NCBI GenBank assembly: GCA_041640595.1
Contig: JBEPZY010000004.1
Location: 98,273 to 162,272 of the forward strand
From: Gemmatales bacterium
GTDB lineage: Bacteria > Planctomycetota > Planctomycetia > Gemmatales > HRBIN36
Direction: 5' to 3'
DNA length: 64,000 nucleotides
Made by a program: the position numbers. Positions 18,001 through 27,000 of this stretch are shown here, piece after piece. Within the stretch, counting starts at the first letter, position 1. Each line of letters begins with the position of its first letter.

Positions 18001-21000
18001 TTCGGCTGGCTGATTCGCGGGTTGCATCATTTTGGCTCGCAGATGCTGATTGTGCTCCTGGTGAGCCACCTGGTTGTGGTTGTCTGGCTGGGAGCCCATC
18101 TACCGCCGCGAGAATTCACCTGGTGGCTGGGACTGTTGGCTCTGGGGATCGTCATGGTCATGGAAATGACCGGCTGGTTGTTGCCCATGGATCAAAAAGG
18201 TTACTGGGCAACACGGGTCGGTACCAACATCATGGGTACCGTGCCGATAATCGGGCCGTGGTTGCAAACGTTCCTGGTCGGAGGCAGCGAATACGGCCAG
18301 CGAACTCTCACCCGTTTTTTCACCCTGCATGTAGCGGTGTTGCCGGGATTGCTGATGCTGGTCATCCTCCTGCATCTGGTTCTGGTTCAGCGACACGGGC
18401 CGACTTACCACAGAGTTTCACCGGAAACTACTCGCTTCTGGCCACATCAGGCTGCCCGTGATGCGCTGGCGTTTGTGGTTATTTTCGGCGTGCTGGTCTG
18501 GCTCAGCTATCAACGCCACGCGGCACCTCTGAAAGACGCACCACCACGCGAATCGCTGAGCTGGTACGAAAACCTCGCCCGGGCGGGCCAGTATGGCCAC
18601 GGTCCTCCGCTCATGGCACCGGTGGATCCCCAGCGCGAGTACAACATTGCCCGGCCCGAATGGTATTACCTGTTTTTGTTCCAGGCTTTGAAGTATCTGG
18701 AAGGCCCCTACGCGGTGTTCGGAACGGTGGGCATTCCGGTAGGGACAGGTATTTTGCTCTTTGTCTTGCCTTTGCTGGGACGCGGGCGCTATCGCCGATG
18801 GGGACACATTGCGGGAGTGGTCATCGTCATGGTGTTGCTCGCGGCTGCCACGACGCTGATCGGTTTAGCCCTCTGGGCGGACTACGGACCAACGGAATCC
18901 GCCAAACGATTCCACGAAGAATTGAGCAAGGAAAAAGAACGTGCTGAGCGCGCGGTGGCGTTAGCCCATCGCGGTATTCCGCCGCAGGGTGCTGTGGAAC
19001 TGCTCCGCCGCGATCCACGCCTGCGTGGGCGTGAATTATTCCAGTTGCATTGCGGCAGCTGTCATCCCTATGGCAAAGACATTCGGCCTGATAAACCGAC
19101 CGCCCTGGATTTGCAGGATTTCGCCACTGCCGATTGGCTTATCCGACTTTTCGATCAGTTGCGCGACGAGAAAAGTCTGGAAGCCCAGGTACTGCCGCAA
19201 ATGGCCAGTTACGTTCGCCGCGAACTCGAACGAGCTCAGCGTGCCGACGCCAAAGCCAAGGCCTCCGGTGAACTTCCTACCGCAGAACAGGAATTGCAAG
19301 AGGATTGGCGGCGCATCGCCGAATGGCTGGCCAGTCACCCACGCCGAACGGTACCTTCAGACGAACCCGAGCTTCACGAGTTGGAACAGAAGGAGCCGAC
19401 TTTTGTGCAGGGCTACCGGGCTTTTGAAAAACGGTGCATGAGGTGCCACACGTATAACGGTACCGGCGGCGGGGATGTTAACGGCCCTGATCTGACAGGT
19501 TATGGTGACGCCGATTGGTTGCGGGGTTTGCTGCACGCTCCTTTTGATCGCCAGTATTACGGTCCGGCCATGGTACGCTGGTCGCGCGTTCCCAAGGAAC
19601 GCATCTGGATGCCGGCTTTCCGCGATAACGAAGGGATTCACGCGGGCTTATGGCAACGCGACTGGCAACGCACACTGGAAGAGCTCGAACGTTTGATTCC
19701 CGAAGATTCGCCGGATCGGGATAAACGAATCGCGGTCTTGCGGGATGCGTGTCGGGTAATGCAGTTGAACGACGTCGAAAGAGAATTGATCATCCGCTTT
19801 ATACTGAGAGACGATCGGCCCGTATTTGGCGGAGAACCGATCAGCCCTTGACGCGATGTCAAAGCCGGTAGAGGCGACACTTCCTCTTTATTGCGGCTCG
19901 GAAGTGTTAACGGGCCAGGTTTTCAGGTACTGGTCAAACGAACTTCCGGCGAAAATACCGCGAAGCACCTCCTGGGCACGGGAGATGTTCGGGTCATCTG
20001 GTCTGGTAACCAGAACCAGCCCCACCAGCAAAGTCATCAGCACTCCCAGGGTGACTCCCAACCTGGCGTCGTTCGGCATCAGGGTAGCCTTTCAGTCCAG
20101 AAAAAGATTGCAGACCGATCCTTGCGTTTGCTAGGAGAATCTGGCAAAATCAGCACAGATGGTAATCGCCTTGCTGACCGCTCAACTGGCAGTGCTGGCC
20201 ACCAGCGGCAGGGCGACGGATGCCAGATGGCCATTCGATTCCGGCTGATCAGCATTCTCACCGGCATCGGATGCAGGCTCAGCCAGCACGTTGTCCACCA
20301 GGTAGTATAGCAGCTCGCGCAGGGAGTCAGGCTGAATCTCATCCGCGACCGCTTCCGCACGGGCACGATGTTTGTCCACGAGTTGCCTGGCACGAGCGAA
20401 AACACCGGCCCGTTCAAACAATCTCCGCACCGTGGCCAGACGGTCCACGCTGTCCCGTTGTTCTTTGAGCAATCTGAGCAAGCGTAGCCGCTCTTCGCCG
20501 GTGAGCGTTTCCAGCGCCAGCGCCAGAAGCACGGTAGGCCGAGCACTCAGTATATCCTGCCCGGCGAGCAGTTTGTTATCTCCATCGCCTTGCCAATCCT
20601 GCAAATCGTTGAGAATCTGAAAAGCTACACCGAGATGCCGACAAAACTCGGCGACGGGTTTTTCGTAATGTTCGACAGGCCCAGCCAGACGCAGACCGGC
20701 ATACAGGGCTGCCTCGAACGCTGGGGCGGTTTTCAAGGCATAAATCTTCAGAGCATCCAGCGGCGTCAGGGTTTTATCTCTGGCATCTCGCCAAGCCAGT
20801 TCTGCACCCTGGCCTTCCGATAATTTCATGTGGGCTTCTGCCAGCTTGTGCAAAATATCACTGCAAGCAGCCGGTTCCACTTCGTTTCGTGCCCGAGCGG
20901 CTAACCGGTAGCCTAGGCCGATCAAATAATCGCCGACGTTGATTGCCGTGGCTACTCCGTATTGCCGGTGCAATGTCTCCTGGCCGTAACGATAGCAGTC

Positions 21001-24000: not shown

Positions 24001-27000
24001 GCAGCAGACGCTCGCGGTCCAGCTTTGGCGTCAATGCGGTTACCCTCACGAAACCGAGCCGGTTGGTTGTTCGACGATTTCGTAAGTCCGCCGGTTACAG
24101 CCCTCCTGGTGCCGCAACGCCAGCTGATAAAGGCGCTCTCCCGTCGGCGTAGGATAGCGACCGGTGATGCAGGCCTGGCACAGACGGTTAGCATCCATAC
24201 CAATGCACCGCGCCACAGCTTCGATCGGCAGATAGAGCAAACTGTCCGCTCCCAATTCCGCCGCCATGCGTTGCAGTTCTTCCAGGGTTGGCCGAAGGCT
24301 TTGCAGATGTTTCGGGGCGAACAGTTCGTTCACCGTGGACATATCAATGCCGTAAAAACATGGGGCGACGATGGGCGGACAGGCCACGCGAACGTGAATT
24401 TCTCTGGCTCCGCCCCGACGACGCATCTCCTGCAGAAGTGCCTTCATCGTGGTGCTGCGAACAATCGTGTCTTCCACCAGTAAAACGCGCTTGCCTTCCA
24501 GAACTTCCCGCAACGGGGTGTATTTCATCCGCGCTCGCGTCGCCCGATCTTCGCCTTGGATGAAGGTTCGGCCGACATAGCGGTTGCGCATCAGGCCTTC
24601 AACCGAGGGCAAGCCCAGCTCATAAGCCATCGCATCCGCGGCGGCTTTACCGGTATCCGGAACGGGCACGACTATCGTGTTGCTGTCCAGCGGCACCAGA
24701 CCGAGTCGTTTCTCCTGCCAGGCCAGTTCGCGTCCCAGGGCACATCGCACGCTGTACACACCGCGGCCTTCAATGCTGCTTGCGGCATTGGCGAAATAAA
24801 TCCATTCGAAGAAACAATGGGCTGTCGTCTTGCTGCGGGCGAAGTATTCCAGGCGAACCTCGTTGTCCTGGATGATGATCATCTGCCCGGGTTCAACATC
24901 GCGGATATCGGTAAAACCGAGATTACTGAGGGCAACGCTTTCACTGGCGGCAGCGAAAAGCGGGCCGTCTATCGCATACACCAGCGGGCGAAAACCCAGC
25001 GGATCCCGCGCCACTACCATGTCGCCTCGTGCGTTGAGATAAACGATGTTGTAGGCTCCTTCGAAGCGCTGGCTCAGATTGTGGAACACTTCCACCAGGT
25101 CCGGTTCCTGGTCGCCGCGCAGCTCGTAACTGAGATAGTGCATGATCACTTCCGTGTCCGTATCGCGGGTCAGATGATAATCCCGCTGCGACAACAACTC
25201 GTTTTTCAACTCCTGGTAGTTGGCCAGCTGACCGTTGAAAGCGAAGCTGAACCATTTCCATCGGCAACCGTGATAGCGCTGGAACGGCTGGGCGTAACTT
25301 TTTTTATCGCTGCCGCAGGTGGCGTAACGCACATGCCCGATGGCTGCATACCCGGCATACTGCTGCATCAGCGACTCGAACTTGCCGCGATGGTTCAGCC
25401 GCAGTGCCTCGATCACCGTGCCGATGTCTTTGTAGGTATCGAGCAATTTCTCGCGGTGGGGATTGAAGGTGGTGATTCCTGCGGCCAGTTGACCGCGATT
25501 CTGCAAATCCAGCAACATGCGCGGCATGAGGCGTACGATTTGTTCACGACCACCCGGAGGGGCGAGCGCACTGCGTTCCGGTCGGTCGAGATAATACAGG
25601 GCTGCAATGCCGCACTCGTGCTGCAGGCAAAGCATAGACGTTTCCCGTGAGGGCGCTGGTCTCCGCGTGAAATTATATTGGCCACACGCCAATTCGCTGT
25701 CGGTTGTTCTCCAGGCTGTTCCTGGCCAGACCGCAAACCCGTTCACTACGCTTACTACAACAGCATCCGATATCGGCACCAGGAAGCTGGCCCCACAGAG
25801 AAATTTTCCACTAAAGTATCAAGCAAGGCTATGAAAATCTGGCTTCTGGGAAATGGTGCCCGGCCCGGTGTCGCCGAATGGGCGGAGCGCATCCGCGCTT
25901 TACTGGGAGAACGGGTCACCGTCTTCGACCTGACAGGGCAAGCTGATCTGGCACAGTCAGAGGCGGACGTCGCACTGGTGATCGGCGGCGACGGTGCCAT
26001 TCTCCGCGCTGCCAGGCAAATGGCTTATCGTCAGCGTCCGGTTCTCGGTTTGAATCTGGGTCGGCTTGGGTTTTTAGCCGAGGTGTCGCCGCAGGAATTT
26101 CTGCAACATCCGGAACAGTTCCTCGCTGGCCAATTCAGCGTGTCGCGGCATGTGATGTACGAATGCACGGTCACCTCACCCGCCGACCAGCGCACTATCC
26201 TGGGATTGAACGAGATTGTCATTTACCACGGCCCGCCATTTCATCTGATTGAAATTGAGCTGTACGTCGAGGAGGAACTGGCCGCCCGTTATAGCGGCGA
26301 TGGTTTCATTTTGAGCACGCCCATCGGTTCCACCGGACATAATCTTTCCGCCGGAGGGCCGATCCTGCATCAGGAACTGGCGGCCTTCGTCGTAACCTAC
26401 ATTTGTCCGCACATGCTGACCAACCGCTCTCTCGTCGATCGTGCCGACAAATCCTACCGTATCCGCGTTCCTCGCTGCGGTCCGGGAACTACTTTGATTT
26501 TGGACGGGCAGGAAATTGTGCCGCTTTCGCCTCAGCACACAATCACTGTGCGTCAGGCACCGGTCTGGTTTCAGCTGGTTCACTTGCCTGGTCGCAGCTA
26601 TTATCGTACTCTCCGCGACAAATTGCACTGGAGTACGCCACCAGGACAGCATTAGAGGAGTAGGCCATGCTCAGCCGTAAATTCACCCTGTGTCTAGCCG
26701 CTACGCTGCTGGTCGTCCAGTCCGCGCGAGCTGAAGATCGCCCGCCGAACATCGTGCTGATCCTTGCCGACGACCTGGGCTGGGCGGACCTGAGTTGCTA
26801 CGCTCCGTCGCTGTGGCAAACGCCCAATCTCGACCGCCTGGCTCAGCAGGGTATCCGCTTCACCCACGCCTACGCCGCCAGTTGTGTCTGTTCGCCGACA
26901 CGAGCCGCCCTGATGACCGGCCGGCATCCCGCACGCCTGCACCTGACCACCTTCCTACCGGGACGCAAAGATTTCCCCGATCAGAAACTGTTGCAGCCGA

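Follow-up and report, generated by a model that had tools for sequence, protein, structure and literature searches.

The 64,000-nucleotide stretch of Gemmatales DNA analysed here (the window) carries, side by side on the minus strand, a gene for a class II terpenoid cyclase and a gene in which DUF116 is fused to a polyprenyl synthase domain, and the genome around it has no squalene synthase gene. This pair is probably the core of a widespread, uncharacterised SHC-like cyclase cassette of PVC/FCB bacteria that serves a squalene-independent pathway to cyclic polyprenoids. With no squalene synthase of its own, this genome can serve as a natural test case for squalene-free synthesis of a ring-bearing isoprenoid lipid by the cassette. 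The non-squalene idea as such is not new. Passages of Santana-Molina 2020 (PMC7306690) report a polyprenyl synthase near the SHC-like cyclase and, on this basis, propose a precursor that is not squalene, and the DUF116-polyprenyl synthetase fusion was noted in Pirellula staleyi by Makarova 2015 (PMC5898192). DUF116 does not occur in the main text and supplement of Santana-Molina 2020 (PMC7306690), nor do COG1852 and ferredoxin in McShea 2025 (PMC12414744).

The cyclase gene (22178..24049, minus strand) has an open reading frame of 623 aa from a GTG at 24049, or of 618 aa with the start at 24034. It matches SQHop_cyclase_C (E 2.3e-37) and SQHop_cyclase_N (E 1.9e-21), Pfam domains that do not distinguish members of the SHC-like clade from true hopene cyclases. 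With TIGR01507 (cut-off 431.1 bits) the protein scored only 113.6 bits, whereas true SHCs of the same order reached 435-737 bits. In a quick maximum likelihood tree the SHC-like clade (SH-aLRT 100) comprised both this protein and the cassette cyclases of Bacteroidota, and true SHC and OSC-like cyclases were separate from this clade. The TIGR01507 score and the separate clade rule out that it is a hopene cyclase. We assign the enzyme to the published 'SHC-like / unknown function' clade by taxon labels, score tiers and gene context. Its DxDD proton-donor motif (D352-A-D354-D355, in VPDADDT; 22985..22996, minus strand) aligns with D374-V-D376-D377 of the solved SHC from A. acidocaldarius. All 27 clade members in the alignment keep D352, D354, D355 and H418, and we read H418 as the likely counterpart of SHC H451.

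The fusion gene (20182..22125, minus strand; open reading frame and Pfam) encodes at most 647 aa; its start is probably the GTG at 22014 (residue 38), giving a protein of 610 aa. Residues 311-566 of the longest frame (20428..21195, minus strand) form a trans-polyprenyl diphosphate synthase-like domain (PF00348, E 1.7e-46, 158.9 bits). No NCBIfam equivalog matched the protein above its cut-off; the best of them, a model of encapsulin-cargo polyprenyl transferases, gave 135.5 bits (cut-off 450). These scores do not fix the chain length. The first Asp-rich motif, DDIED (residues 370-374; 21004..21018, minus strand), is preceded by Ala at position -5 and Ser at -4 and followed by RYG. Small residues at these two positions (FARM -5/-4) allow products longer than C15; Ala and Ser were present in 18 of 18 fusions examined. 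RYG replaces the usual RRG in 65 of 79 fusions. The second Asp-rich motif of the window protein is NDLQD; readings among the 79 fusions include NDxxD (32), DDxxD (30), DDxxE (9) and, once each, NDxxE, NDxxN and NDxxG, and Asn is its first residue in 35, as it is in the window protein. Judged by its motifs the fused domain is atypical and may do something other than simple chain elongation. The genome also encodes an IspA-type FPP synthase, whose residue at FARM -5 is Tyr, and a long-chain synthase, which makes the fused synthase a third, dedicated one. With this separate FPP synthase and the Ala/Ser pair in every fusion examined, it is unlikely that the synthase half merely supplies FPP, a possibility that the genome-wide survey's note had raised.

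DUF116 covers residues 108-256 (21358..21804, minus strand; PF01976, E 4.2e-39, 133.9 bits) and has seven conserved cysteines in an alignment of 25 sequences. Within it lies a CxxCxxC motif (C166, C169 and C172; 21610..21630, minus strand), each cysteine of which is kept in at least 90% of the 25 sequences and is invariant in an alignment of eight. An AF2 model of DUF116 (pLDDT 88.2) found no structural relative with Foldseek at E ≤ 1e-3, and the best VIA Z score, 6.6, was obtained against generic Rossmann folds; the family has no relative of solved structure. DUF116 is predicted to have a Rossmann/flavodoxin-like core and to bind an Fe-S cluster or a metal.

Cyclase and DUF116 are inherited together. 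Of 121 genomes from this order, 97 have both, 19 have neither, and only 5 are discordant. In 59 of these 97 the two share a strand and are no more than 5 kb apart, and they are adjacent in 67 of the 80 closest Planctomycetota loci and in all three Bacteroidota-type loci; because the compared genomes are related, fewer independent events lie behind these counts than the numbers suggest. Most of the 100 DUF116-bearing genomes of the order have an uninterrupted frame of some 600 aa across the DUF116 match, and the fusion also occurs in records from Bacteroidales and Prolixibacteraceae. Split genes for DUF116 and the synthase, still adjacent, exist on long contigs as well. DUF116 was found without the cyclase in 3 of the 100 genomes, all fragmented or weak cases. 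Of the 60 order genomes that carry DUF116 and a true SHC, in contrast, a comparison of contigs found none in which these two are 5 kb or less apart. The association is limited to the SHC-like clade.

Other genes follow the same pattern. A radical SAM ortholog, present in 98 of the 121 genomes, matches the cyclase closely (both 97, neither 21, discordant 3) and often adjoins cyclase or fusion. A ferredoxin-like gene and a small toroid gene, each in 84 of 121, track the cyclase more loosely: among the 22 genomes without cyclase, the former occurs in one only (78% complete) and the latter in three. Three Bacteroidota-type metagenome loci have Fer4, radical SAM, DUF116::PPS, toroid and cyclase in one operon. 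In the window genome the radical SAM, ferredoxin-like and toroid orthologs are unlinked to the pair and scattered over contigs C8, C1 and C5; they are assigned to the cassette by phyletic pattern and by synteny in other genomes.

A probable mode of action of such a cassette is as follows. Using FPP from the separate IspA as its starter, the synthase-like domain would build, or handle in some other way, an isoprenoid diphosphate with a chain above C15. The SHC-like cyclase would then protonate a terminal double bond by its DxDD aspartate and form a polycyclic product, squalene not being involved. The Cys-rich DUF116 would be a redox (Fe-S) module and could, together with the ferredoxin-like protein and the radical SAM enzyme, perform, or deliver electrons for, the tailoring or activation of this lipid, and a small prenyltransferase-fold barrel would be the fifth member of the cassette. 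In this outline the substrate, chain length and product, the metal that DUF116 contains and the sequence of steps are inferred, while the gene anatomy, the clade membership, the lack of squalene synthase, the co-inheritance and frequent adjacency of the genes and the purifying selection are observed.

DUF116 could also stand outside the chemistry, as a docking or regulatory module, an Fe-S sensor or a generic electron-transfer module that is merely fused. Its fold is of a generic Rossmann/flavodoxin type, and archaeal DUF116 genes, for whose proteins electron transfer was proposed, adjoin genes for sulfite/nitrite reductase and an ATPase, not isoprenoid genes (Makarova 2015, PMC5898192). However, fusion or adjacency of the split genes is retained across Planctomycetota and Bacteroidota, seven cysteines are conserved, and the few genomes with DUF116 and no cyclase are fragmented or weak cases; this makes a role outside the chemistry rather unlikely. 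If that role were electron transfer to the radical SAM enzyme, it would overlap with the pathway outlined above.

The genome (4.45 Mb, 95.47% complete) was searched in six frames for SQS_PSY (PF00494), and none was found. The best match, 14.4 bits against a cut-off of 26, falls inside a polyprenyl synthase frame on contig C9, and in a control search 8 of 14 named genomes scored above the cut-off. PF00494 is also absent from all three congeners and from the single sampled genome of the neighbouring genus. For HpnH the best match in the genome was the cassette radical SAM (37.8 bits, cut-off 225), and searches of the genome found neither squalene epoxidase (PF08491) nor YtpB/DUF2600, the latter with a control search that matched B. 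subtilis. Across the order PF00494 is present in 112 of 121 genomes. A true SHC or OSC-like cyclase occurs in 84 of these 112 but in none of the nine without PF00494, whereas the SHC-like cyclase is found in 92 of 112 and in seven of nine (Fisher, p = 1e-5 and 0.67, respectively, uncorrected for relatedness), and DUF116 is kept in eight of the nine. Apparently, the cassette is no source of squalene for the true SHC and OSC-like cyclases, since these are lost together with SQS_PSY while the cassette stays.

These data confirm what the genome-wide survey had reported, a cyclase gene beside a DUF116-polyprenyl synthase fusion in a genome without SQS_PSY, both frames being on the minus strand. Of the interpretation given there, the independence of the pair from squalene made by HpnCD or Sqs and the place of DUF116 in a cyclic-terpenoid pathway are supported by comparative evidence, not by chemistry. 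The data do not support DUF116 as a missing enzyme in the making of polycyclic terpenoids generally, or as a general partner of hopanoid cyclases, as it keeps to the SHC-like clade; nor do they favour a replacement of squalene synthase by DUF116, given the loss of true SHC and OSC-like cyclases despite its presence.

A quite improbable alternative is that the cassette is its own route to squalene, or to another head-to-head or irregular dimer, without squalene synthase. The synthase-like domain would couple two allylic diphosphates, the DUF116 Fe-S centre and the ferredoxin-like protein would supply the reduction, and the cyclase would cyclise the dimer. We take this to be the boldest reading of the survey's note. 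In two phyla the synthase is indeed joined to a redox domain, a dedicated ferredoxin-like gene accompanies them, and the synthase-like domain is atypical in its RYG and in the Asn-first second motif. Chrysanthemyl diphosphate synthase, which is related to FPPS and forms a cyclopropyl, non-head-to-tail link, also has NDxxD as its second motif. In addition, passages of Santana-Molina 2020 (PMC7306690) describe SHC-bearing groups that have no Trans_IPPS_HH enzyme, for which new precursor routes are possible. However, no true SHC or OSC-like cyclase persists in the nine genomes that lack SQS_PSY, although most of them have the SHC-like cyclase and DUF116; most of the order's genomes have HpnCD-type genes alongside the cassette; the Asn varies, DDxxD being retained in many fusions; and the SHC-like clade is sister to cyclases that use head-to-tail polyprenyl substrates (McShea 2025, PMC12414744).

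Both frames are intact in four genomes that lack squalene synthase. For both genes pN is 0.14-0.35, whereas pS is saturated at 0.71-0.80; those dN/dS values that could be obtained are 0.06-0.13. Cyclase and fusion are under purifying selection in these genomes, which rejects the earlier suggestion that the cyclase is a relic. That the cyclase is a leftover or acts on imported squalene, with an unrelated fusion that makes FPP/GGPP for other needs, would suit the missing squalene synthase, the uptake raised for other SHC-bearing groups in passages of Santana-Molina 2020 (PMC7306690) and the adjacency of just two of five cassette genes in the window genome, but is very improbable given this selection at saturated synonymous sites, the joint gain and loss of both genes, the separate IspA and a cyclase score far under the SHC equivalog cut-off.

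The proposed squalene-independent cassette shares features with several known systems. With archaeal DUF116 (arCOG02078/COG1852; PMC5898192) the fusion has in common the Pfam family, the CxxCxxC, called ferredoxin-like by Makarova 2015 (PMC5898192), further conserved cysteines and a predicted flavodoxin-like fold. The archaeal proteins have two N-terminal transmembrane helices and a reductase or ATPase gene context, whereas the window fusion has no such helices evident by eye and a terpenoid context. Shc (TIGR01507), which works with HpnCDE or Sqs and HpnH, shares with the window cyclase a two-domain alpha/alpha-barrel fold, the DxDD acid and repeats of QW type, and the hopanoid pathway and the cassette each have a radical SAM enzyme. 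The window cyclase, however, belongs to another clade, far below the TIGR01507 cut-off, in a genome without squalene synthase, and the cassette radical SAM is far below that of HpnH.

The sporulenol pathway of Bacilli (HepS/HepT, YtpB, SqhC) resembles the cassette by its dedicated polyprenyl synthase and the polyprenyl-derived, non-squalene substrate of an SHC-family cyclase. It differs in that YtpB/DUF2600 is absent from the window genome and DUF116, ferredoxin and radical SAM are absent from the sporulenol pathway; moreover, SqhC was grouped with SHC (McShea 2025, PMC12414744), and the window cyclase is outside SHC. That bacteria can cyclise head-to-tail chains of C25-C40 has precedents in the epoxy-polyprenyl cyclases Lon15 and AtoE and in the biosynthesis of gromomycins, described as the first triterpenes of bacteria that arise from hexaprenyl diphosphate and not via squalene (PMC12105684). 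Their substrates are epoxidised or guanidine-capped and their producers are actinomycetes, whereas the window genome has no epoxidase match, and GroF of the gromomycin pathway is another kind of cyclase. The epoxy-polyprenyl cyclases are nevertheless sister to the SHC-like clade (McShea 2025, PMC12414744), and it is with this clade, as described in PMC12414744 and in passages of PMC7306690, that the window cyclase shares its divergence from SHC and OSC, the DxDD residues, the PVC/FCB taxa and the nearby polyprenyl synthase.

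Three consecutive ORFs on the minus strand of the window encode a PurF-like amidophosphoribosyltransferase (24046-25779; Pfam GATase_6/7 and Pribosyltran), a cyclase of 623 aa (22178-24049; SQHop_cyclase_N and SQHop_cyclase_C) and a fusion protein (20182-22125), in which DUF116 (residues 108-256 of the 647-aa longest ORF) is followed by polyprenyl_synt (residues 311-566). The genome-wide survey's note had described the last two as a pair in a genome without any gene of the squalene synthase family SQS_PSY (PF00494; Sqs, HpnC, HpnD). The ORFs, their Pfam domains and a best PF00494 score under the cut-off confirm this observation, and the coordinates and domain positions of the survey agree with ours if the fusion starts at the GTG at 22014 and the cyclase at 24034. 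With the fusion start at 22014, cyclase and fusion are separated by a gap of ~163 nt. The PurF-like gene overlaps the longest cyclase ORF by 4 bases; with the cyclase start at 24034, it ends 11 nt ahead of that start. It may be co-transcribed with the cyclase. On the plus strand, a gene set at 15065-19851 is convergent with the fusion gene and points at its 3' end. Pfam assigns 15065-16948 to an FG-GAP/ASPIC repeat protein, 17062-17736 to a Rieske protein and 17737-19851 to a 704-aa protein that joins cytochrome b to c-type cytochrome domains; from their domains, the Rieske and cytochrome b/c genes look like a bc-type complex with fused cytochrome c. Also on the plus strand, at 25678-29661, a NAD kinase gene is followed by tandem sulfatases (26667-28043 and 28213-29661) with a Pfam SGSH_C domain in each.

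The window cyclase is the sole strong match to its family in the genome; all other PF13243 scores are at or below 28.4 bits. It is not a squalene-hopene cyclase (SHC) by the equivalog model TIGR01507, which it matches with 113.6 bits against a cut-off of 431.1, and the score against the solved SHC of A. acidocaldarius is 72 bits. The proton donor is kept, since 'PDADDT' aligns with D374/D376/D377 of the solved enzyme; the DxDD motif is invariant in 27/27 relatives, and the protein carries several QW-like repeats. TIGR01507 scores over the 121 genomes sampled from the order fall into three tiers: true SHCs (435-737 bits, in 68 of the genomes), OSC-like cyclases (about 205-275 bits) and a lowest tier of about 70-105 bits, the home of the window cyclase. 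Three deep clades were also obtained in a quick ML search with 22 rows. There, the window cyclase lies outside the true SHC grouping and forms, with its Gemmatales orthologs and Bacteroidota-type cassette cyclases, one clade apart from true SHC and OSC-like enzymes (SH-aLRT 100); its stem measures 2.19, and the tree is to be read with a long-branch warning. The closest homologs bear the source names Gemmatales, Gemmataceae or Planctomycetes, and further cassette cyclases were found in loci reached with a Bacteroidales-named fusion protein, which extends the clade to FCB as well as PVC bacteria. In genus g7 of the order there is an extra cyclase, 'type4' (loci L113, G113:C5, and L114, G009:C1), which TIGR01507 matches in two separate parts with about 93-169 bits and which nests within the true SHC clade of the quick tree, beside the sequence from genome G025; this may be a paralog of SHC that evolves fast.

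Such a group has been described before. Santana-Molina et al. (2020, PMC7306690) defined an SHC-like group whose planctomycetal members, according to the article, retain the catalytic residues; its supplement states that a polyprenyl synthase is usually near and that a non-squalene precursor is therefore possible. Compared with this description, the window cyclase appears to match the published 'SHC-like' or 'unknown function' clade (PVC, FCB, Spirochaetota, Acidobacteriota): its sequence is divergent from both SHC and OSC, with catalytic residues kept, a polyprenyl synthase domain nearby and relatives in PVC/FCB lineages. The window pair is real and appears to be an ordinary-looking member of this published and functionally uncharacterised family. 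In the tree of terpenoid cyclases, McShea et al. (2025, PMC12414744) single out the SHC-like clade as the main branch yet to be characterised and write that its substrate would constrain the evolution of hopanoid and sterol cyclases. The substrate of the family is thus an explicit open question in the literature, for which the window genome offers a clean natural control.

In the window genome (4.45 Mb, 42 contigs, 95.47% complete), PF00494 found nothing over its cut-off of 26; the best score, 14.4 bits, was inside a polyprenyl synthase frame, and in a control search 8/14 named genomes gave matches over the cut-off. Nor was the family found in the 3 congeners or in the one sampled genome of the neighbouring genus g4. 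With the window genome and four others, these make up the 9 of 121 order genomes in which PF00494 was not found. Not one of the nine encodes a true SHC or an OSC-like cyclase, compared with 84/112 genomes with PF00494 (Fisher p = 1e-5), whereas the SHC-like cyclase is kept in 7/9 genomes without and 92/112 with PF00494 (p = 0.67); both p values ignore kinship, and the losses may amount to only about four events. Because the squalene users were lost along with squalene synthase and the SHC-like cyclase was not, the contrast supports a non-squalene substrate for the latter. The same contrast makes it less likely that the cassette serves as a general source of squalene. Squalene epoxidase was not found in the window genome. 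By inspection of contigs, a true SHC and DUF116 lie no closer than 5 kb in any of the 60 order genomes having both; in 5/60 the two share a contig, separated by at least 1.3 Mb.

Cyclase and DUF116 are inherited together. DUF116 is present in 100 and a cyclase ortholog in 99 of the 121 order genomes; 97 have both and 19 neither, three have only DUF116 and two only the cyclase, and each of these five exceptions involves a fragmented assembly or a weak match. The distance between the two is within 5 kb in 59/97 genomes, always on the same strand and with the cyclase upstream in 53/59. Among the 80 closest loci found with an 8-sequence DUF116 alignment, nearly all labelled Planctomycetota, the cyclase is immediately upstream of the fusion in 67, and upstream DNA is missing in 4 of the 13 misses. 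The DUF116::synthase fusion is also present in records named Bacteroidales and Prolixibacteraceae. Three metagenome loci, the only ones obtained through a named Bacteroidales fusion protein, share an operon for a ferredoxin-domain protein, a radical SAM protein, the DUF116::synthase fusion, a barrel (a small toroid of the prenyltransferase fold) and an SHC-like cyclase, so that synteny extends to other phyla. A tblastn search of the window genome gave full-length orthologs of the three extra genes, unlinked to the pair: the radical SAM gene at C1:149168-150355 (38% identity to the Bacteroidota gene, E 5e-91), the ferredoxin-like gene at C8:75392-76525 and the barrel gene at C5:58377-59435, with C1, C8 and C5 denoting contigs. 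A GHMP-kinase gene for 327 aa (L099, G000:C8:73677-74660, +) lies ~0.7 kb from the ferredoxin-like gene.

The radical SAM gene, which often adjoins the cyclase or the fusion, occurs in 98/121 order genomes; it is found with the cyclase in 97, neither is present in 21 and three are discordant, where genomes not among the listed matches were assigned by set difference. The ferredoxin-like gene, often directly upstream of the cyclase, occurs in 84/121 genomes and in only one genome lacking the cyclase (78% complete). The barrel gene is likewise found in 84/121, including 3 of the 22 cyclase-lacking genomes. In genera g10, g17, g27 and g30 the ferredoxin-like and barrel genes are below the thresholds used, yet the gene order is Bacteroidota-like, and these genera probably carry more divergent versions. 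For the radical SAM protein no NCBIfam family scored above its cut-off, and the only matches were to a generic SPASM/AhbD/NirJ-like core. The barrel weakly resembles prenyltransferase beta subunits (RabGGTase beta, 25.6 bits) and is without DxDD, so we no longer take it for a second, monodomain cyclase.

Further genes accompany the cassette in places. In the 80 Planctomycetota loci (L015-L094), a GcvH-like gene occurs in 20 and a HemN-like radical SAM gene in 6, in some upstream of the ferredoxin-like gene and cyclase; the orthologs of both are adjacent to each other in the window genome (G000:C7:89028-90867). Four of these 80 loci (L051, L027, L080, L087) are labelled Ca. Kuenenia, Methylacidiphilum or Chitinophaga. 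Their fusions are planctomycete-like, with 63-67% identity to the window DUF116 domain, and the labels could be due to mis-binning or to real occurrence. The Kuenenia locus would bear on hopanoid synthesis in anammox bacteria, one of the SHC-bearing groups, along with groups of Desulfuromonadales, that are said in the article of Santana-Molina et al. (2020, PMC7306690) to lack squalene synthase. In a cultured Bipolaricaulota isolate, unfused DUF116, IspH, 'SHC', 'adenosyl-hopene transferase' and polyprenyl synthetase lie in one cluster, listed in the legend of Fig. S12 of a 2025 preprint without functional work on those genes (bioRxiv 10.1101/2025.11.21.689855). Going by that legend, the 'SHC', the 'adenosyl-hopene transferase' and the polyprenyl synthetase may be the cyclase, radical SAM protein and synthase of the cassette; if so, a culturable organism would be at hand for work on it.

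Three trans-polyprenyl synthase genes are present in the window genome: an IspA-type gene on C6, a long-chain type on C9 and the fusion, which PF00348 matches with 158.9 bits (gathering cut-off 27). The first Asp-rich motif of the fusion is DDIED (residues 370-374). In 18/18 fusions examined this motif reads FHKASL(V/I)HDD.ED, with Ala at position -5 and Ser at -4, which we take to mean, from the chain-length rules, that the aromatic 'floor' of FPP synthases is missing; the IspA-type enzyme has Tyr at -5 ahead of an inserted first motif. Canonical trans-isoprenyl diphosphate synthases have DDxxD as second motif and RRG after the first. Both other synthases of the genome have DDxxD and RR; the window fusion has NDLQD and RYG. 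RYG in place of RRG was seen in 65/79 fusions (the region compared is 20428-21195 in the window), and the second motif in these 79 is NDxxD in 32, DDxxD in 30 and DDxxE in 9. No NCBIfam equivalog came near its cut-off. The RYG and the variable second motif suggest that the domain may be something other than a plain chain elongator. Because of these atypical motifs, and with no equivalog near its cut-off, we term it synthase-like and leave its chain length open.

The main rival follows the boldest idea of the survey: the atypical synthase domain and DUF116 could together make squalene or another head-to-head dimer. A redox domain fused to a synthase leans in this direction and so, by analogy, may the Asn in the second Asp-rich motif, which is known from chrysanthemyl diphosphate synthase. 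What speaks against it is that genomes without PF00494 have no SHC or OSC-like cyclases either, and we regard such a dimer as improbable. The survey's caveat that the cyclase may be a relic does not hold, because cyclase and fusion are intact in all four squalene-synthase-lacking genomes compared and the dN/dS values are of the purifying type (0.06-0.13 where computable, with 0.14-0.35 non-synonymous differences per site against saturated synonymous values of 0.71-0.80). Apparently, cyclase, fused synthase and their three unlinked partners persist under selection in a natural squalene-synthase-null background, in which true SHC or OSC-like cyclases never do.

The DUF116 part (PF01976, 133.9 bits, cut-off 25) has seven conserved Cys (C54, C61, C72, C75, C78, C120 and C148 of the domain), among them a CxxCxxC motif formed by C166, C169 and C172 of the fusion protein. 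Its AF2 model (pLDDT 88.2) predicts a core of the Rossmann/flavodoxin type along with a helical hairpin and a loop rich in Cys. A Foldseek search of the PDB with this model returned nothing at E<=1e-3. With VIA wide, Z reached 6.6 at best; the matches were to designed Rossmann folds and to a large number of unrelated alpha/beta proteins, with no specific solved relative. All matches of a PDB sequence search were on the synthase part, none on DUF116, an ESM Atlas feature search with DUF116 had no usable match, and a homolog search for shorter, stand-alone DUF116 proteins returned mostly close relatives and fragments. DUF116 is named nowhere in the text of Santana-Molina et al. (2020, PMC7306690) or of its supplement, figures such as S10 aside.

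Altogether, we think it rather likely that the five-gene module makes a squalene-independent cyclic isoprenoid; for any particular chain length, or a specific role of DUF116, our confidence is much lower. In the mechanism that we propose, the synthase-like domain of the fusion would make or handle an isoprenoid diphosphate longer than C15, and the SHC-like cyclase would protonate its terminal double bond and form rings. DUF116, the ferredoxin-like protein and the radical SAM protein would be a redox/radical unit acting on the same lipid, in which DUF116 and the ferredoxin-like protein may hand electrons to the radical SAM enzyme or carry out a reductive step on the diphosphate. This sharpens the hypothesis: the substrate would not be squalene, and the cassette would supply no squalene to other cyclases. 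New from the window are the squalene-synthase-null lineage, the scattered genes with co-inheritance kept and the finding that true SHC and OSC-like cyclases behave differently; it also narrows expression and knock-out work to a minimal set of genes.

Should the product prove to be a cyclic polyprenoid lipid, it might represent a new class of membrane lipids and a candidate source of fossil terpanes, of which the tricyclic ones have been termed orphan biomarkers (PMC9247107). It is tempting to go further and to speculate that the cassette cyclises a non-squalene polyprenyl chain, by anoxic ferredoxin/radical-SAM chemistry, and yields polyprenoids with three or more rings, of the same type as tricyclohexaprenol. 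The links of this chain may all be head-to-tail, or else the atypical RYG/NDxxD synthase domain may produce an irregular chain. PVC/FCB bacteria would then be the long-sought biological source of tricyclic terpanes (cheilanthanes), and in DUF116 one would have a new Fe-S enzyme with isoprenoid diphosphates as substrates, but as a whole this is a long shot.

How does the module compare with known systems? The sporulenol-type pathway combines SqhC with YtpB (DUF2600, tetraprenyl-beta-curcumene synthase), and YtpB was not found in the window genome at E<=0.01, in a search whose control matched B. subtilis. Nor was HpnH (TIGR03470) of the hopanoid side-chain pathway found in this genome; the best match, at 37.8 bits against a cut-off of 225, is the cassette radical SAM gene on C1. 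A precedent for triterpenes made without squalene is provided by the gromomycins, bacterial compounds described as derived from hexaprenyl diphosphate (PMC12105684). For DUF116, the comparison is with Makarova et al. (2015, PMC5898192), whose article already recorded a planctomycete protein in which it is joined to polyprenyl synthetase, and predicted a flavodoxin-like, metal-binding, electron-transfer domain. With its conserved Cys and modelled flavodoxin-like core, DUF116 of the window fusion agrees with that prediction.
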